A DNA stretch of 57,974 bases, filler included, from Perkinsus olseni (taxonomy: Eukaryota), in NCBI GenBank assembly GCA_013115125.1. It is 2 parts of 2 records of this genome, joined end to end, with 100 filler letters (N's around TTAATTAATTAA, not from the genome) between each part and the next. Parts side by side here need not be neighbours in the genome. Positions count along the whole stretch, not along the records: positions 1 to 28,973 come from JABANN010000439.1; 1 more part is not named here. One strand, given 5' to 3'. The translations under genes and the position numbers were made by a program. Of the stretch, positions 4,623-20,521 are shown in pieces. The notes under the pieces are model-generated. The model saw only the letters and a program-made list of their open reading frames with translations, had not been told where the DNA came from and searched no databases. The number at the start of each line of letters is the position of its first letter. Position 1 is the stretch's first letter.

Positions 4623-4742
4623 ATGGCTCATAAGTCCAACCCCTATAAGAAGGCCCGCGCGGCCATGCGTTGGAAGTGGAAGAAGAAGCGTACTCGCCGT
4701 CTTCAGCGTAAGCGCCGGAAGATGCGTCAGCGTTCCAAGTAA
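4623..4742 (+). CDS. RPL41: 60S ribosomal protein L41 (eL41), copy 1
   Basis: MAHKSNPYKKARAAMRWKWKKKRTRRLQRKRRKMRQRSK: eL41 core with an alveolate-type N-terminal extension. Confidence 0.95.
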   Translation: MAHKSNPYKKARAAMRWKWKKKRTRRLQRKRRKMRQRSK

Positions 4743-5186
4743 ACTCTCTTCTGAGTTTTCTTGGACGTCCGCTGTTGCTGGAGAGGTTGCTGGATTGCAA
4801 GTGTCTGAAGGTGATATCCATTTCAAATTTTCGCCCCTCGCTTTTTTTATTTTCCTATTTCTCAGGTTGATATTACCATTGTTGATGATAACAGCATTCG
4901 ACTTGTCCAAGGCTGTCGCCGCTACCTTTAACCCCGGTCTCAAGATTTCTCCTTGGTGTGGTGTTGCTAACTGCTGCTCAATTAACTTCGTGATTGCGAG
5001 CATTCTTCCATCCCTACTGTGCAAACGGTGAACGCTGGCATGCCAGTCAGTAGCTGCAGATTGCACTGAAGGGCCACATATCTCGCTAGATCAACTCGGA
5101 GCTCATCCTAGTGGGTTTGGGGTCGTCTCAGTTCGCTGAGCTTATCCTTACTCCCAACCAAGAGCTTCGGAAATTTGCATTGAGAT

Positions 5187-5274
5187 GGTCAAATGATGAT
5201 AAAACACGACGGTCTTATGAACCCACTTGATGGGATCTGATTCCACTTATAACTCAGCTCACTCTGATAAGATC
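5187..5274 (+). ncRNA. Box C/D snoRNA, dual guide for LSU rRNA (U35/snR73-like and U29/snR71-like)
   Basis: C box ATGATGA 5193-5199; guide CACGACGGTCT 5205-5215; D' ATGA 5217-5220; C' TTGATGG 5227-5233; guide AACTCAGCTCAC 5251-5262; D CTGA 5264-5267. Both guides are complementary to the conserved LSU segment GUGAGCUGGGUUUAGACCGUCGUG. Confidence 0.85.
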
Positions 5275-5280
5275 TGTTAA

Positions 5281-5571
5281 CGGCAATTCCGACACTTGAA
5301 GTTGGGCTGCTCCTGTCAGTGACGAACTTCCTTTTTTACATTGCCAAAATGGACTCGTTAGCTCAGCTGTCTGACCGATTTTCGTATTGGTACAGATCGT
5401 TCATTGCGCGATACACCTTGACTGTATGTCGGGTCCACGGCAATTCCGACACTTGAAGTTAACCGCCCTCGTCGGTGATCGGCTTCTATTCTTACATTGC
5501 CAAGATTCACTCGTTAGCTCAGCTGTCTGACCGATTTTTTGTACTGGTACAGATCGTTCATTGCGCGATAC
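5281..5571. repeat. Two-copy tandem duplication, period about 157 bp
   Basis: CGGCAATTCCGACACTTGAAGTT at 5281 and 5438; an ~80-bp block TTACATTGCCAA...GCGCGATACA near 5336-5414 and 5492-5571. Confidence 0.9.
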
Positions 5572-6728
5572 ATTTCTGTTGTGATTATCGATGGCTTTTT
5601 TCATCCCTCGCGTAAAGCGGTGAAATTTAGTAGCTGCAGCGGTGCGTGCTGGGTCCTGCCATCGTAGAGAGAACATGCTGTCCCCTTCTTGGGTTGATCG
5701 TATGCCGGGGCTCTCCACCGAAGCCGAAGTTCACGGTCAGCTTAGCTGGCCTACTTAGCGGGTTTGACTAGCAGCTCTGGACAGCTTTATTGACTACTCG
5801 CTGTCTCGTCTTGAGTGATGACTTTATTGGTAGTCGTGTGCTTACAATAGACAGCGAAGAGTGTATGGTGCTCGGTGTTGCGCTTCCCTTGTGGTAGGTT
5901 TGTTGCTATGATGTGTATCGTACAAGTTCCTGTTTGAGTTTGCAAAGCACACTCTGTGACGAGGCTCCGAGTGCCTCGCTACAATTTCCAACTTTGCTAT
6001 ATGGACGTGTCCCGATTCCTATGCTCGGTGAGTTAACAACACCACCCTCACGGAGTTTCATATTTTGGATACATCTTACTGTTTACTATTAAGAAGCCGA
6101 CTATAGGAATTTACGAAATTAAAGATACCACGTCGCATGGCGTAAAGTTATACCAACGTAAAATTCTCGGGCTGAGGAATAGCCATGACTCCTTGCTTTC
6201 GTTTGAGCAATGATGCGGGCCTAGGCTGCCGATCGGTTTCAAACACGTTTGAATAGCTATTTGATAACAAGGACCATATTACGTAAATAGACACAAGGCT
6301 GACCCTTCACGTATTTAGTCGGAGCTGCACCCTCTGCAGTAACGGTTGAGTATAGGGTGCGAATTTAGTACATGCAGGTGACTTCTCAAACTGTTTCATT
6401 GTTGAACGTATTTGTGTTGTGGAAGTACTCACCTCTGGGCTTGGTGGCGTGGCCGAGCATAACCGGTATTATAGCGCTGACCTCTCAAAGTGGTAGAAGA
6501 GTAATGAGGATGACCTTATGTCACGGTGGAATCTCATTGTCCATCACACGGAACGACGAAACCATGGGTTGAAAGTAAAGCTTCGAAGCCTCTTGAACTT
6601 CTAAAGGACCACCGGGCTGGCTTGGCGACAGTGAGCACACAAAGCTTGCAAAATGCTCGACTGATCGATTTGATAGAGCTTGGATCCCCGGAGTGTTCTC
6701 TTCACACCAGGGTTTGGTCTTCTCCAAC

Positions 6729-6848
6729 ATGGCTCACAAGTCCAACCCCTATAAGAAGGCCCGCGCGGCCATGCGTTGGAAGTGGAAGAAGAAGCGTACT
6801 CGCCGTCTTCAGCGTAAGCGCCGGAAGATGCGTCAGCGTTCCAAGTAA
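6729..6848 (+). CDS. RPL41: 60S ribosomal protein L41 (eL41), copy 2
   Basis: Same 39-aa protein as 4623-4742, with one synonymous CAT/CAC difference; the ~72-nt upstream segment is also nearly identical. Confidence 0.95.
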   Translation: MAHKSNPYKKARAAMRWKWKKKRTRRLQRKRRKMRQRSK

Positions 6849-8182
6849 ACAACAACAGCAGTGAAGGGTAAGCTCTTGATTTCGCCACTCTTGTCTACTA
6901 TCTATAGTGTTGTTTCTGCAGATGCTGTGACGACCAAGGCCTGTGAAGACTGTTCGCCTGAGCCAATTGACGACTTTTGTATGCCGCTTTTGCGGTCATC
7001 ATAATCATCGCTCTTCCCTGCATTAAATATGGACTTTAGTTTGCTGCAGTTGGGAGGGGTGCATTCTCACCGGCCATTCATCGGCCGGTTTACGAATGCT
7101 GGTATTGATGGTGGAGTGACACTCTGACCGTTAAGGAGAGATGCGTTCCAGCCGACAGGTGCGTTCTCGGGCAATGTATCGATCGGATTCGATCGGATTG
7201 GCATCGTTCATATTCGGTGTGTGTGAGTTCATAGTCTAACGTCAGAATCGGCTTAGTTAAGTTCTCGTCGATGTGCTCATCTGATGGCGGCTTTTGCGGT
7301 CGGCATCGGACCGCTTTCTCTACACTTTATTCTGCAGTAGTGGGTTGAATTACCCGATCCTCAGCGGCGTGCAACGATACTCCCGAGGCCGGGACGTGAG
7401 AAGATATGGTGTGGACAGTCGGTCTTCAGTGGATCATGCTCGCAGAGCAACGGGTTACTTTTCACACTAGATCACAATAGGAACATTCTCACCGACCTTG
7501 AGCTGGCCTTTGATGCTGGGATAGGTCGCCCTGAACCCGTTGGGGACGTAGCACTTAGGCCGCGTAGCCTATCTTTCATCCTCACCATCGCTTTCTCGAA
7601 CTCTCCGGTAGGGAGAAAGCTCTTCCTGTTTCTATTACGGATCCTCAACCGGGACCGGCAATTCTTGTTAACGAAGCCGGCAGCTTTCCAAGAGCGACAT
7701 AGCTAGGTGAAGAGTGGATGCTGCCAGGAAAGAATGAGATGGTCTGGTCTGTTCCTTCTGCTCGTTGTGGCAGCGTTCGGGCATGTAATAGCGCGATACA
7801 GAGCTCATCGTTAAGTTGCTAGGCTAGCAATGCTAGCGCATCGGCATCAAGTCCAACTAAGCCGGTGACGACGTTGAACTTTGAACTGACGCACACCATT
7901 CTCCCTACACTGCTCAGCCGCGAGGGTTTGCCTTTCTTACAATAACAAGGGAAGGAAATCTTCGGGGAGGTCGAGGGATGCACCTCCCTCAGCAACTCAG
8001 AACAAAACACGCTCGAAGCTTGAGGAGAATCTTCTACTCGCCGCCGGGATGATCGGCAGCCTTCGAAAAAAGAATCAAAAAAGGGCAATAAAATCTTGTC
8101 GACGCCCAAGAGTTGCTCTGTTGCTATGATCGATTTCATTAGTGGCCGCTGGCTGAGGCCAGCAGCAAACCAGGAGGATCTC

Positions 8183-8872
8183 CTACGAGTGGGGGTCACT
8201 CGGGAGTGTGAAGGGTGGTACTTCAAGACGGCCGCCGTACTCCACCGCTCCTGGAACGTGGTACCCAAGCGTGTGGATGTCCAGGAAGAGACGTTGAGCA
8301 GAGACGTTGTGGCCGGTGGGATCCACGACGATCGTTGATGTTAAATACACGGGTAAAGAGTAGAGCTTCTCGCTCAGTGGCTCCACTGCTGCTCATGCCG
8401 CGATAAGATCCAATACACCAATGCATGTAGCCGAGCGATTTAAGAAACGAGGCTCAGCTTCATCAAGACAAACGAATGAGTTGCCCTGAAGCATCGTCAT
8501 CTCCGTCCACATTCTGTTGCGGATTTTTAAGTCTATCGTCCCTCGTGCGCAGTACTGCACATGACGCTCCAATGTAACCATACCACACCAAACGTATTTC
8601 TCCAGAGTAAGCTTCTCCACCGATATGTGAAGGACCGAAGGAAGGTTGTACGAGATTCTTAAGAGAGTGCCGATGTACCACATACAGCAAGCCAATGCTA
8701 GTCCGGAAAGGAGAGTCCACGTGGCTAAATAATACCAGGGCGTCTTCCCGCCGCTCGCCATTTTGCCGTCTCGCCATAGCTCCCGTGGTGGCTTGTGTGG
8801 CTCCGGCCTGGACCAGCGAAGAAAGCCAGAAGGGGTATCGAGAGGGTCGTATGCGGCGATGAAAGTTTCCAT
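8183..8872 (-). pseudogene. Membrane-anchored family member 1 (possible LEA_2/WHy-like), interrupted by an in-frame TGA
   Basis: Motifs DTPSGFLRWS, a TM helix, EKLTLEKYVWCGMV and NRMWTE are shared with three paralogs. TGA at 8395-8393 is followed in the same frame by family-homologous sequence (VEPLSEKL...LGY). Confidence 0.65.
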
Positions 8873-9500
8873 ATCTCGGCCGGTGGAAGCGCCAGGCGCA
8901 GAGCGGAAATCTCGTGACGTGACGTGCCACCCGTGACACCCCAGCCGTCACATTTTGCCTCGGAGGGACTGCCGTGTTTTCGAGAATCGCCCAGTCTCAT
9001 AGCGAAACCCTCGCCCGAGAACGGTCTACGGCCTCGCTTTGGCGTTTGGTGTCCCTCGGAGGAAAACCTCTTGACGAAGTTTCTGATTGCGTCACATATC
9101 AACACTAGAGAGAGTTTCCAACTTCGCGCGTCGGAAAGAGTCTAAGCCGGAATCAGCGTTGGACTATCAACTCACGTACACAAACTCGCTCATGTGTTTG
9201 ACACACGCCCCAACGCTAGGGTGAGGTTGATGGTGATGATCAGTGATCACCGCGACCACTACGGGGTAGCCTCGAACAGGATGAGGGTCGATCCTTTAGT
9301 CCGGGATTAATAGCCCCATTCATCAACTTTAAACAAAACACACACAGAGAGCATAAGAATTCCGCTAAGAGCCTTCAAAGGCATTCTAATGAAAAAGAAG
9401 AGACCGTGGCCAGCCGACACCAAAAGACCGACAACAGGCTGCTAGCCCTGAACTGTTAGCCCGGCCTTGTCTGTAGCCGTTGACTGGGGAGTCTGTCACT

Positions 9501-10178
9501 TTAGTGGGGCTCCTGTGGTAGGGGGGCTCCCGAGAGGAACGAACTTGAGAGAGTTGAGTGTGGTCCTTGAAAATGGTCGTAATCCTTCGTGTATTCGAAA
9601 GAGTAGCCGAGAGCATATACTTCGAGCAAGGTGTTAGTGAGCGTGACATTGAGGCCCAGGGGAGCTTTCAGGGCTGTCCACGTCAGCAACATCGGCACAG
9701 TGTGCAGGCCCTCGCTCACGGGTCCCAAAAGTATATCCTCGCTGAGCGTTACTTCCAAGACGTCAAGCTCGAGAGAGTCTGTCTCCATGAACCATAAGAC
9801 CGACTCGTCGTTGCTCAGGATTGCCACCTCTGTCCATAGTCTGTTGCGAGTCTTCAGCACCACTGACCCTTGTGCACAGTACTGCAGCTGAGACGCCAAA
9901 CTAACCATACCACACCAAACGTATCGTTCCAGGGTGAGGTTCTCAACCGATACTTGAAGTACCGAAGGGAGATTATATGAAAGAGTTAAGAGAGTGCCGA
10001 TGTACGAAAGTCCGCTAGCCACTGTTAGCGCGGACAGCAGGGCCCATACGGCCAGACGAAACCGAGACCTCTTCGCGTCGAGTGCCTCTTTGAGAACTCG
10101 CCGCAGGTCCCTCCGAGGCTTGCCTGCCACCGGCTTCGACCATCGGAGGAACCCAGAAGGGGTATCGAGAGGGTCGTG
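9501..10178 (-). CDS. Membrane-anchored family member 2 (no in-frame ATG ahead of the conserved N-terminus)
   Basis: DPLDTPSGFLRWS...ENLTLERYVWCGMV...NRLWTE...LEVYALGY; intronless; in-frame TGA immediately upstream. Confidence 0.6.
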   Translation of the reverse strand, partial: HDPLDTPSGFLRWSKPVAGKPRRDLRRVLKEALDAKRSRFRLAVWALLSALTVASGLSYIGTLLTLSYNLPSVLQVSVENLTLERYVWCGMVSLASQLQYCAQGSVVLKTRNRLWTEVAILSNDESVLWFMETDSLELDVLEVTLSEDILLGPVSEGLHTVPMLLTWTALKAPLGLNVTLTNTLLEVYALGYSFEYTKDYDHFQGPHSTLSSSFLSGAPLPQEPH

Positions 10179-11702: not shown

Positions 11703-14700
11703 TCATTCTTCTTCCTCATCTCCACCCTCGCCATCATCACCAACCACCTCGGCCGGGAAAGGCTCCGGCTGCTCCTCGATGTCCGCTGCCTCCACCAACA
11801 CGACTGCTGGACCCTCGACAGGCAAAAGGGAGGGTTGGTCCCTGACAGGCAAAGAAGCCTTCCAGTTCGTATCAGCGGCGATCGCTCTCACTTGCGCACG
11901 CCGTAGCCAACATAGACGTTTGAGAGAACACCAGTACTCTGCTGAGCTATTGTTGCTGCTCCGGGCCATCTCAGCGACTCTACCGCCACTACCCCGGGAG
12001 AGCTGCTACCCTCGCCTGTTGTATACGATACCTGCAAGATTCCTGCGTTACGACATCATAAATCGCCTGCCGTCGTCCGTCGCTAGTCTTGTCATCTTGC
12101 CTAGTGTTACTTATTATGCGCCGATAGTCTTGCGCATGCGTGTGTAGCTCATTCCCCTCGGGAGAGTAAACTTAGACGGAAAAGAGTATAATGTCTGGGC
12201 ACTAGCTATAATCCATAGGATCCTTCTCACAGTCTCCCTCTGGCCTTAGGTCCCAAGTACGATCATCAATTGCGGAGCGAGCGGAGCAAGCGGAGCTCCA
12301 TTATGTCACATCGGATCATTTCGGGCGTGCGTGCGGATTATTTCTTTCCGGCCGAGGCGTACATGGAGACACGAAGCACATCGAAAGGATTCATTCCCGA
12401 GAAACGCTAGAGGTCCGCTCCAAGCTAAGATACATATTCACCTCACAGTGCCCATCCCTACTGGATCTCCCACGAGCCTTATCCTCCAACAGTCCATCGG
12501 ATCAACGGCCTCCTCCCCTTCCTCCACCTCTTCTACCGGCATTCCCGGCACCTGTCCATACTCGTACCAACCGCCATAATCACGCAGCAAAAACACGTGC
12601 ATGTGCGCTATATTGCCGACCATCTTCGCTGCTCACTAACTACCAATCATCCCGCATCTTGCACGCGCGTGAATGAGTATGCGCTCTAGATCGCGCCATA
12701 GCATCTCATTATCGATCAACTCCCCTCGAGTCCGGTTTTCCACTCTTTTAGCCCCATCTCAAATGGCCACACTGTACTGAGTTGAAGTCAGCACGCGTCA
12801 CCTGGATCCTGGAGTCCGCCGCTATCGAGGTGAAGCGCTCGATGGGAGGGTCTTCGGTCGCCAACTGCTCCAACCTATTACTCAGCAGCTCCATCGCCTC
12901 TTCCTAAGACGACCTCGGATGCGCCGCCTTCTGGCAGTGTCACCAACCTCCCCTTCCTGGGGCTCCGGCAAGTCTGCTGGATGCTGCGTCCGGCCACTGC
13001 GAAGGAGATACGGTCGAGCATGCACCCACTTGTCTTTGGACAGCAGCTCCTGAGGGCGCACTGCGATCAGCAAAGGCAGAAACACTTGAGAGCAAAGGGA
13101 CCGTCGTGTAGAAGCTGTTATTCACTGAATGATGGAGCACGGTAGTGGTAATAATATATACGACCTAGGTTCCAAAGACATGCCATTCCACCACGCTGGA
13201 ATGAGCGCAGCGGACGTGCTTATCGGCAGAACAGGATACCAATAATACGACGCTGAGCGTCGCCAAGGTCTACCGCATTGGAACCAGTATCGGTACCCTG
13301 CGGAGCGTTGGCCGCGGCACAGCACCGCATAATCAACGGAGGAATCTCCCGAGGGCAGATGATAAACAGGAAATAATAGAAGGTTCCACGGTATATCCAT
13401 CTGCTACCTGCGGCGAAGGAATCTCGAAGCCCTCACTACGGATAACGTCGCCGTGAATGAGCTTCTCGAGGCCGCCCAAAGATTCCTCATCCTGCAAGAA
13501 GGTAACTGTAGACTGGCCGATGACCGAGGCACTGACCTCGGGGGTTGCAGTCCACTCGCCTTCGATCGCCAGAATCGACGCTGCACTGATACGAGCTATG
13601 ACGCTGCGAAGGTACTCCCTGAAAAGCAGCGGGTTGTGGAGCTCACACGAGCATTTCATCAGCAAGCCCGAGTTAACCCGGGGAATTTGACAACCCTGGG
13701 AGAGATCGGCCCGCCCTTACTCCTCCGATGCTTCGAAAGGCGGCCACTGTCCACACGCGCCGTCGTCCATCCTCCTACTGAGGTCCCCCGTGAACAGCCT
13801 TTTGCACGAGCGTGAGGCCTCGAGAAGTCGCGGGGTGATCTGAACCGGCAGTCGTTCGGTGTTGCTAGCTTAGCCACGCATCTGACCTGTGGAAGCTCCA
13901 CCCAGGCGTTCGCGGAGGTGATATCTTGGACCACAAAGTAGGTATAGAGATTGGCCCCCGGACGGCCGCGCACTTCTGGTGCTGTGAAGATCCTGAGGTC
14001 ATGACAAGCCTAGGCAGAGAGAAATGATACCCTATCAGCTTCCTCTGCTTCTTCCACCAGCCTGTATAGGGACCACGCTCTATGACGCAGCATACAGTAC
14101 AGAACAGCCGAGAATGAGTCCCAATCGGGAGAGTACTAACAGTCAACACTTCGAAAGAATGAAGGAGTTAACCGTTGTTATGCGACAAAGCGAGTAAATG
14201 GGTAGCGGCACCAACAGCGAGACAGACCGAGTGGCGGCTTACTCTTCGGCCTCCTTGACATTCTTCGGAGCTTCCTCTTCTGGCAGCGCCGGCAGTAGAG
14301 CCTCAGCGATGTAGTAATCTTGTGAGCCAGTCGCTGAAGTGTGTAGCAAGCGATCGAATGAGAGTAAATACCACATCCGATGTAGTCTAGCTGGTTAGGA
14401 TTCGTGGCTCTCACCCACGCGACCGGGGTTCGAGTCCCCGCATCGGAACTTTTACCATCGATCGGTGACTAATAATGCGCGGTAGTGTAAAGTGATGCGA
14501 ATGTTACACACCCCTGAAACACCAATTGACCGCACGCGCGCGGGGGCTCCGATTCCCAGTTCGCCTGAGCTAGCCACCAAAGGCAGCTGTTGAATACTAC
14601 TCAATATCTTGCCCCAGAATCTGAGCATCTTAGCATCGTTCCCAAGCTTTCCTGCCAGCTCCCTCATCCTGTTAGTCAACAGTACTATCTCCGCCTCTCC

Positions 14701-18449: not shown

Positions 18450-19238
18450 CTAAGCTTCTAGCCCGGACACCATGACCTTGTCAGCAGCCGCTGACTGGGG
18501 AGTCAGTGACTTTAGTAGGGTTCCCGAGGTGGGCGACAAGTTCGAGAGAGCGAAGCGTGGTCCTCGAAGATCGGGGAACTCTTCCCGGTACCAGAAATAG
18601 CCACCAAGAGCATGAAGTTCGAGAAGGCCATTCGCAAGCGTCAGGTTGGTACCTTGGGGGCCCATAGGAGCTCCAGCCGCTAGAGTGATCGGTAGAATAT
18701 GTAGGCTCTCGCTCATGGGTGCCACCGCCGTATCCCCGACCATCGTCAAGACGGCGATCGATCCGGTATCTTCGAGAGAGGTTGTCTTGTTGAACCATAA
18801 GAATGATTTACCACTGCGGATTGTCATCTCCGTCCACATTCTGTTGTGAATTTTCAAATCTATCGTCCCTCGTGCACAGTACTCCATTCGAGAATCTAAT
18901 GTTACCATACCACACCAAACGCATCGTTCCAGAGTAAGTTTCTCCACCGATATGTCGAATACCGAGGGGAGATCATATGAAATAGTTAGAAGAGCGCCAA
19001 TGTACCAGAGACCGCAGGCCAATGTTAGTCCAGACAGAAGAGCCCACATTGCCAAGTGATACCACGACTTCTGCTTGACACTCGTCAATATGTCCTGTAA
19101 AGTCCGTGGCGGCTTCTCTGGCGCCGGTCGTGACCACCGGAGAAACCCAGAAGGAGTATCGGGCGTCCATACCCAACGTTCGGCGGCAGATGCTCCGGCA
19201 AAAGAAGGCGAGTCACCCTTAGAGATGCAGACGGGCAC
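18450..19238 (-). CDS. Membrane-anchored family member 3 (no in-frame ATG ahead of the conserved N-terminus)
   Basis: 262-codon open frame with DTPSGFLRWS, a TM helix, EKLTLERCVWCGMV, YCARGTIDLKIHNRMWTE and LELHALG. Confidence 0.65.
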   Translation of the reverse strand: MPVCISKGDSPSFAGASAAERWVWTPDTPSGFLRWSRPAPEKPPRTLQDILTSVKQKSWYHLAMWALLSGLTLACGLWYIGALLTISYDLPSVFDISVEKLTLERCVWCGMVTLDSRMEYCARGTIDLKIHNRMWTEMTIRSGKSFLWFNKTTSLEDTGSIAVLTMVGDTAVAPMSESLHILPITLAAGAPMGPQGTNLTLANGLLELHALGGYFWYREEFPDLRGPRFALSNLSPTSGTLLKSLTPQSAAADKVMVSGLEA

Positions 19239-19270
19239 GGCGTGACAGGGACGGTGACACGGGGCCCCAA

Positions 19271-20521
19271 TTGTCTCTCACCCCACTTGCTCTATCTTCT
19301 CTGGTCGTAGACTTCACAATCCTTCGAGGGCCCTGTATAATAAACAGTGGGTGTACAACCTCGCTCTCTGAGCGCCACAGTGAGCGCTCGACCCTCGGGC
19401 GCCCAGAGAGCGAGGTTGCCTTGAGTCTCGAGGGGATTCAACAACGTACGCTTGCTAGCGACGATAAACTGCCCTTCTGCACTATAACTCAGTACAGTGT
19501 GGCTATTTGAGACGGGGCTCAAAGAAAGGTGAAACCGGACTCGAGAGGAGTTCGGGAAAACTGATCTAGTTGTTGGATTCATGGTGAACGTATGTTCCAT
19601 AGCATGACGAGGAACGCACGGATTCACTGGGACCAACGTTGTTGTGCCATTCGGGTGTATCAGGTGACATAGGACTCAACACACAGGAAGAGACGGTCTA
19701 AATCATCCAAAGTCATCTAAATCCATGGAGGAAGTGTCTCGTCTCGAGCACAGCGGAGCGAAGCGCATCAAACGTAGTACGTTGAACGTACGTACCACGA
19801 GCAAAGGCGCACAAAGAGCAAGGTGGGTACGCAGCAGCAATGAAGGCAGTTGTCACTATAGTGCACTTCACTTGTTGCAACTCGTTGCCGAAACTTGGAA
19901 ACTTGCAAGACTACATTCATTGCTCAACAATCATCCGAGAAAGAACTCCCACACCAGCAGAAGCCTGCAACTTCGAGTTCGGCGACTCCCCCGCCAATTG
20001 TCGAGGTGACACAAGACTCCCCCCTTTGGGGGGGAGTCAAGGCCCCCCAGTGATACAGCAGACGCCTTCCGAGACCACCCCTCCCTCTTGAGACCCAGAG
20101 ACTATGAGGATGCCCGCAAAGATGCAAGGAAGGAGGCTGACCTCATGAGCAAGTTCAAGGGGACTGATGATCCACGAAGTCTGGACGGCTTTCTCTCCCA
20201 CCTCAATGTGAGGTTGAGTTTGAATGGTTGGGTCAGAGGCTCGCCTCAGTCCTATTATCTCCTTGTGAACTCGTTAGATTCTGAGGTAGTCGAAGAGATC
20301 TTTGTCCCCACTGAGTCCCTTCTTCAAGTTCAACGAACCCCCGAATGGTTCGATCACGCCTTCAACGACACCCTGACTGAGCTGTACATTAATTACTATG
20401 ACCCTTCCATGCGAACTCTCCTCCTTGCCAAGTGACAGCAGACTCAGCAAGCCCACAGCCAGTCCTTCGAGGAATACCTCATGGAATTAGAGAGACAGCG
20501 AGTACTGTTGAGGCACAGCAA
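19271..20521 (+). mobile_element. Decayed gag-like retroelement ORF, split by a solo-LTR-like insertion
   Basis: SKFKGTDDPRSLDGFL...LLAK*QQTQQAHSQSFEEYL resembles retrotransposon capsid regions. It has a frameshift near 20088 and an in-frame TGA at 20433. The ORF halves rejoin when 19478-19865 plus one TSD is removed. Confidence 0.55.
19478..19865. mobile_element. Solo-LTR-like element copy 1 (388 bp), TSD CTTC
   Basis: TG...CA termini, 9-bp terminal inverted repeat TGCACTATA/TATAGTGCA, CTTC on both flanks; homologous to 47513-47750. Confidence 0.88.

Follow-up and report, generated by a model that had tools for sequence, protein, structure and literature searches.

Cm2959 and Am2946, two conserved 2'-O-methylations in the peptidyl-transferase segment of large-subunit (LSU) rRNA (yeast numbers), are assigned to separate guides in yeast and human: Cm2959 is the site of yeast snR73 and human U35, and Am2946 that of yeast snR71 and human U29 (PMC8817022, Table 1, and PMC13015370, in the parts of both papers available). 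Yeast, human, Arabidopsis and Dictyostelium all carry both methylations (available parts of PMC8817022 and PMC8583080). A first-pass annotation of a stretch of Perkinsus olseni DNA, 57,974 nt long with filler and here called the window, proposed that one RNA encoded between two ribosomal protein genes carries both guides as a fusion of the two functions. Is this locus a double guide for the two sites, and is its layout a rare derived one?

Two guides in one predicted box C/D RNA

The predicted RNA (Table 1) has AUGAUGA and CUGA boxes near its ends, as expected of the class (RUGAUGA and CUGA, about 60–120 nt apart), and an internal AUGA/CUGAUUC module that could form a K-turn or K-loop, with a 4-bp stem and a covarying pair across 11 copies. 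Its two antisense elements exceed the 10 nt expected of guides, with D+5 on the target: they pair over 11 and 12 bp with LSU locus L128, whose sequence here is that of the Rfam consensus. Folded alone, the window C/D RNA gave no significant structure (z 0.57); insignificant folds in isolation are usual for box C/D RNAs.

Table 1. Positions of the predicted snoRNA, its parts and its neighbours in the window
Feature	Position	Strand	Basis
Double-guide box C/D snoRNA (predicted extent)	5187..5274	+	ends predicted from 4-bp terminal stem
Terminal stem, 4 bp including one G-U	5187-5190/5271-5274	+	sequence
Box C AUGAUGA	5193..5199	+	sequence
D' guide, pairing over 11 bp with LSU 2956-2966 (yeast numbering); G5212 = D'+5, predicted to pair C2959 (snR73/U35 site)	5205..5215	+	
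Box D' AUGA	5217..5220	+	sequence, alignment
D'-C' hairpin, 4 bp, internal K-turn stem; stem kept, sequence differing, in paralog and sister RNA	5222..5234	+	
Box C' CUGAUUC; C' U pairs with D' A, replaced by C-G in L118 and L123	5237..5243	+	
D guide, 12 bp to LSU 2943-2954, G-U at G2951; U5259 = D+5, predicted to pair A2946 (snR71/U29 site)	5251..5262	+	
Box D CUGA	5264..5267	+	sequence
RPL41/eL41 copy 1, in the form with an extended N terminus (39 aa); candidate as host transcript	4623..4742	+	Pfam PF05162
GT-AG intron in 3' UTR of RPL41 copy 1; snoRNA outside intron	4811..4865	+	contigs of runs X23, X24
H/ACA-like RNA copy 1 with non-canonical H box; 3' pocket predicted for U2944 equivalent, the site of yeast snR37	5282..5418	+	
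H/ACA-like RNA copy 2, tandem, 85% identical to copy 1, same predicted pocket	5439..5575	+	
Further H/ACA-like RNA in the cluster	5941..6077	+	weak match to RF00545 (psi18S-841/snoR66; 22.1 bits, gathering 50), with fold z -3.8
RPL41/eL41 copy 2	6729..6848	+	Pfam PF05162
Spliced 3' UTR intron of RPL41 copy 2	6868-6921	+	transcript contigs

A family search of the assembly recovered model positions 24–1444 of the organism's own LSU, a weak 2194–2324 fragment and nothing else, and pattern and DNA searches did not find the peptidyl-transferase segment in the assembly, from which the 3' half of the LSU is missing. The target used was L128, which is identical to the Rfam RF02543 consensus over that segment and is not the organism's own LSU; the other rRNA compared was the organism's own SSU, 5.8S and 5' LSU (2,486 nt). 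Against L128, the D' guide forms 11 Watson–Crick pairs and places D+5 on a C (model position 2968), and the D guide forms 12 pairs, one of them G-U, and places D+5 on an A (model 2955). The two predicted sites lie 13 nt apart, equal to the yeast 2959–2946 spacing, and the duplexes abut on the segment (2943–2954 and 2956–2966, numbered from A = 2946) with a single free U between them. Among the rRNA compared, each guide paired best with this segment (-20.7 and -20.4 kcal/mol versus -16.3 and -17.2 for the next best); the D guide has an additional, weaker 8-bp match in the organism's SSU. The G-U pair of the D guide is probably real and conserved, since a sister guide in the same genome (below) pairs all three G's and the same U occurs in Leishmania, Entamoeba and yeast snR71, in the parts of those sources available.

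Compared with 2,616 nt of rRNA, 150 dinucleotide shuffles of the window gave box C with an exactly matching 11-nt guide at a mean of 0.007 against one observed, and box C with two guides of at least 8 nt likewise at 0.007 against one. The proposed C-D'-C'-D architecture, with 11- and 12-nt guides (one G-U) to abutting LSU stretches, was thus borne out by the sequence and by pairing with L128, and the D+5 register of both elements on L128 upholds the assignment of both guides to one RNA and of its sites to the Cm2959 and Am2946 equivalents, which are tabulated in the published sources cited above. We conclude that the window RNA is a real double guide for the equivalents of yeast Cm2959 and Am2946, its targets being predicted on the conserved consensus.

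Calling the RNA unannotated was fair. At gathering level Rfam gives two tRNAs in the window and nothing else; by E-value, the best match at 5187–5274 is SNORD35 (RF00211), over the 5' half, at 19.6 bits (E 0.2) and below the gathering score of 36, and SNORD29 (RF00070) has zero matches in the window up to E 10. The two families the first-pass annotation had named for checking therefore divide, SNORD35 returning as the best, though sub-gathering, match and SNORD29 not at all. The RNA has the SNORD35 guide for the Cm2959/Cm4506 site at D' without the 36-bit score, and the SNORD29/snR71 guide for Am2946/Am4493 without the guide-at-D' layout or the 48-bit score. A metagenomic homologue described below (L118) reaches 31.2 bits with SNORD35, above the 19.6 of the window RNA. 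In predicted function the RNA resembles U35/snR73 plus U29/snR71, and by score it belongs to neither Rfam family.

A snoRNA cluster behind RPL41

The window RNA heads a snoRNA cluster behind RPL41. Its position between two RPL41 genes, noted in the first-pass annotation, is confirmed by Pfam PF05162 matches on both sides. The extended 39-residue form of eL41 found its best matches in PDB chains 5xxu, 9ygm and 3j79, of which we take 5xxu and 3j79 to be apicomplexan ribosomes. The 3' UTR sequences of the two copies are unrelated, yet both hold a spliced intron.

Eight bases downstream of the C/D RNA begins the tandem H/ACA-like pair. The 3' pocket that scores best in these RNAs, with 5+9 bp and 15 nt from ACA, points to the U2944 equivalent and is moderate evidence for a Psi2944 guide, because 2 of 60 pocket shuffles score equally well; their 5' hairpin found no convincing target in the partial rRNA compared. 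The predicted Psi2944 site and the A2946 target of the adjoining C/D RNA are two bases apart.

Transcript cover comes from contigs of 4 of the 24 listed runs and carries no strand, ends or level; the remaining 20 runs, nearly all small shares, were not counted as evidence. In run X1, which is spliced and very uneven in depth and whose RNA nature is a guess, the locus has cover from a contig at 5072–5257, at depth 654 versus 12–35 in flanking intergenic bins, and cover over 5026–6165 ranges from several hundred to tens of thousands. In X23 and X24, the listed RPL41 contig pieces end at 4918–4938 and cover is absent from 5026–5367, which we do not read as lack of expression; X2 has one low-depth contig that ends at 5176 with an A-rich tail. 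These contig ends in X23, X24 and X2 count against simple read-through from RPL41. Co-transcription with RPL41 copy 1, raised in the first-pass annotation, is plausible.

The highest X1 cover of the cluster falls at 5589–5823 (+; bins 33,617 and 12,830), with a contig at 5607–5708 of depth 16,132. This stretch, in which a hairpin precedes a purine run resembling an H box, has no Rfam match up to E 10 and is possibly an abundant unannotated RNA. Elsewhere, the window contains tRNA genes at 912–985 and 14376–14448 (+), a CRT-like transporter exon at 1372–2391 (-; Pfam PF08627) and three ORF stretches, related to one another, from a membrane-anchored and uncharacterised protein family at 8393–8947, 9501–10178 and 18450–19277 (-). 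In the same genome, a weak LSU-like fragment (L003, C1215:44357–44740; 60.6 bits, model 1891–2388) lies within a 125-kb contig, a degenerate or organellar rDNA piece.

Relatives in the genome, in metagenomes and in the literature

A second copy of the RNA lies on scaffold C2565 (L005), 81% identical to the window RNA, with boxes and both guides intact and changes confined to the spacers. Interleaved with it is a sister RNA with the same D' guide and a D guide shifted by 2 nt to C2948, the snR69 site; the sister D guide pairs at 13 of 13 positions with the LSU consensus, and the two sister duplexes overlap by 2 nt on the target. The sister RNA recurs on C2828, beside an assembly gap, and the C2565 and C2828 copies may be the same array counted twice. 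This tandem array (C2565 1–509, L005; C2828 about 1270–1525, L127) is probably an unresolved repeat at the gap.

All six genome matches to box C plus the C2959 guide fall in double-guide RNAs or in copies truncated at a gap or at the end of a contig. The A2946 guide with its box has five genome matches, of which two are the double-guide genes and three have no box C in the 80 nt that precede them. On these six and five matches, this incomplete assembly, from which a stand-alone guide may be absent, shows neither a separate U35 nor a separate U29. The U35-type guide is always at D' in this genome, partnered at D by a guide for the nearby helix-90 site, A2946 (two genes) or C2948 (the sister). 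Looser guide-pattern searches were too unspecific on their own (223 matches versus 117 in the control; 32 versus 8).

A metagenome scan, which required both guides with a loose pattern and so gives no proportion of single to double guides, yielded 122 matches in 120 loci among the matches listed, nearly all of them chance; a C-like box lies upstream in 9 of the listed matches, in seven loci. The A2946+C2959 layout occurs in at least three of the 120 listed loci, L041, L118 and L123 (the last with three tandem copies), each with box C, D', C', D and both guides in D+5 register. L043 has a C2959+C2948 form with a poor D'. Among these four loci and the window, similarity is limited to the snoRNA and the flanks are unrelated. 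The exact D+5 register of both guides is kept in 7 of 7 A-type copies, and the pair between D' position 1 and C' position 6 covaries, as A-U in 6 of 11 RNA copies and C-G in 5 of 11, copies that are not independent events.

The 113 listed loci without the upstream box were dropped, as were L013, L067 and L093, which are GC-rich with short guides and no D'. In a check for an archaeal precedent, all 16 matches in species genomes are bacterial and were taken as chance, none being archaeal; viral contigs gave 0 matches.

In L118 the double guide is intronic, behind a DDX21-like helicase exon with relatives at 53–61% identity in animals, Paulinella and cryptophytes; with that query, the exon has no counterpart in the P. 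olseni genome. The exons flanking the double guide (L118 234–432) may belong to different genes, a possible misassembly at low cover, and the downstream one presumably encodes a polyprenyl synthase-like protein. L043 looks, over the whole locus on its minus strand, like a polycistronic cluster of several C/D RNAs that includes U14 and the C2959+C2948 double guide.

Published guides, described here from the available parts of the papers, hold the same elements in other combinations. SNORD35/U35/snR73/PFS17 (RF00211, clan CL00056) carries its C2959-site guide at D', like the window RNA, and Plasmodium PFS17 has the same 11-nt guide without, in the part of the source available, an A2946 guide (PMC2656528). 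SNORD29/U29/snR71 (RF00070, clan CL00051) guides the same A2946 site as the window D guide, and the same G-U is found in yeast snR71 (by probe sequence, PMC13015370) and in Entamoeba Me-Eh-LSU-A3089 (PMC3542256). The A2946 guide sits at D' in the Rfam SNORD29 consensus, Plasmodium PFS2 (PMC2656528), Tetrahymena cd4 (PMC3273799) and Neurospora CD27 (PMC2780460), and at D in the window RNA. Leishmania LM27Cs1C1 (T. brucei TB11Cs4C1) has it at box D, with an identical 12 nt including the G-U, and the RibOxi-seq and cryo-EM columns both score its site; in the U35-type LM35Cs3C6/TB9Cs2C1, an AUGA D' comes after a nearly identical C guide, the same box as in the window RNA (PMC13487219). Unlike the window RNA, these trypanosomatid halves lie in separate RNAs, each with an unrelated other half (PMC13487219); their presence at the same boxes is compatible, by sequence, with either a split or a fusion.

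In Dictyostelium, CD15 has been published as a predicted double guide for the U35 site and the helix-90 site C2948, 11 nt apart (PMC8817022, Table S7); its partner site is C2948, not A2946, and its order is reversed, with the C2959 equivalent at D (as judged from CD8), so that the P. olseni sister RNA shares C2948 with it in the opposite box order. Dictyostelium A2946 is guided by CD11 (PMC8817022). Separate guides for C2959 and A2946 are described in yeast, human, Arabidopsis and Dictyostelium (PMC8817022; PMC8583080), and likewise in Neurospora (PMC2780460), Plasmodium (PFS17/PFS2, PMC2656528) and the Guillardia nucleomorph (PMC6461891); for Tetrahymena, cd4 is an A guide only (PMC3273799), and a Cryptosporidium primer pair indicates a C guide with a different 3' end (PMC9465071). 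Fungal guides switch between snoRNAs and form double guides, conserved ones making up 8 of 68 C/D families, among which snR73 is not named in the part of the source available (PMC5824354).

The separation of the guides in yeast and human, as the first-pass annotation stated it, agrees with the sources available in part (PMC8817022, Table 1; PMC13015370), and so does the novelty of the pairing among the alveolate catalogues compared, where PFS17 and PFS2 are separate (PMC2656528) and Tetrahymena cd4 is an A guide only (PMC3273799). The exact A2946+C2959 pair was not found in the available open-access literature, a search that lay outside the Euglena, Chlamydomonas, diatom, oomycete, Toxoplasma, Giardia and Trichomonas catalogues; it also found no snoRNA catalogue for this lineage. 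The description of the RNA as a fusion, in the sense of a rare derived event, found no support: the same layout recurs in at least three of the 120 listed metagenome loci with unrelated flanks, the C2948 form occurs in the sister RNA and L043, and CD15 is published (PMC8817022, available part). By sequence, the window layout is not lineage-unique, and CD15 is a close published precedent.

Working model, alternatives and significance

We consider it likely that the window RNA is a functional double-guide box C/D snoRNA and that a fibrillarin snoRNP methylates both sites, assembly and methylation being assigned from knowledge of the family. The snoRNP would assemble on two K-turns, C/D and C'/D', and 2'-O-methylate the C2959 equivalent from D' and the A2946 equivalent from D on pre-60S rRNA. 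Given the abutting duplexes, and the 2-nt overlap in the sister RNA, both guides are unlikely to pair in full at the same time; the sites would be engaged sequentially or with trimmed duplexes, and the first guide may tether the RNP beside the second site, a view that agrees with what the Dictyostelium authors remark on CD15 (PMC8817022). The RNA would probably be cut from a polycistronic precursor common to the adjacent H/ACA RNAs, possibly by read-through from RPL41.

The double-guide reading has to be weighed against one in which a single guide directs methylation and the other element pairs in an accessory role, as an anchor for the RNP or a chaperone of helix 90/93. The D' half is the weaker module, with non-consensus D' and C' (AUGA/CUGAUUC), and several sister genes serve C2959 as well, its guide being redundant at six genome matches; the targets are just 13 nt apart, and at CD15-like spacing the Dictyostelium authors consider simultaneous occupation sterically challenging (PMC8817022, available part). 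Yet both guides keep their exact D+5 register in all seven A-type copies, the C'/D' pair covaries, no further A2946 guide was found in the incomplete genome assembly, and the trypanosomatid U35-type guide is also followed by AUGA, with its site scored methylated (PMC13487219, available part). We regard a single working guide as distinctly unlikely.

Smaller still is the chance that the working genes lie in the C2565/C2828 array and that the copy in the window is a duplicate, either silent or decaying. Other copies do exist, and the locus has neither X23/X24 cover nor a local X1 peak, but every box and guide base is intact while the spacers have diverged from the paralog, and the RNA comes first in a cluster of structured RNAs with contig cover; we find this reading very improbable. 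A chance arrangement of motifs in a 3' flank would fit the sub-threshold Rfam score, with nothing beyond it in its favour, and has against it the shuffle mean of 0.007, the paralogs and distant homologs, and the placement of both D+5 positions on known methylated nucleotides; its probability is negligible.

With the double-guide reading preferred, the locus adds an unannotated predicted guide for two conserved peptidyl-transferase methylations, and the sister RNA illustrates how a shift of 2 nt in register lets one scaffold serve either A2946 or C2948. Since the target duplexes abut, the RNA offers a natural test case for simultaneous versus sequential action of eukaryotic double guides. In yeast, the helix 90–93 job is spread over interdependent snR37, snR69, snR71 and snR73 (PMC13015370, available part). 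A broader proposal, speculative and in our judgement rather unlikely to hold as a whole, is that the double guide for C2959 (D') and A2946 or C2948 (D) is an old, widespread and uncatalogued family, maybe the ancestor of U35/snR73, U29/snR71 and snR69, and that with the Psi2944 H/ACA guides behind RPL41 it would form a co-expressed module holding the helix 90–93 peptidyl-transferase segment open during folding. If the layout reflects recurrent guide shuffling, it is another example of a documented process; if it is ancestral, the tracing of the U29, U35 and snR69 families to the eukaryote ancestor would change.
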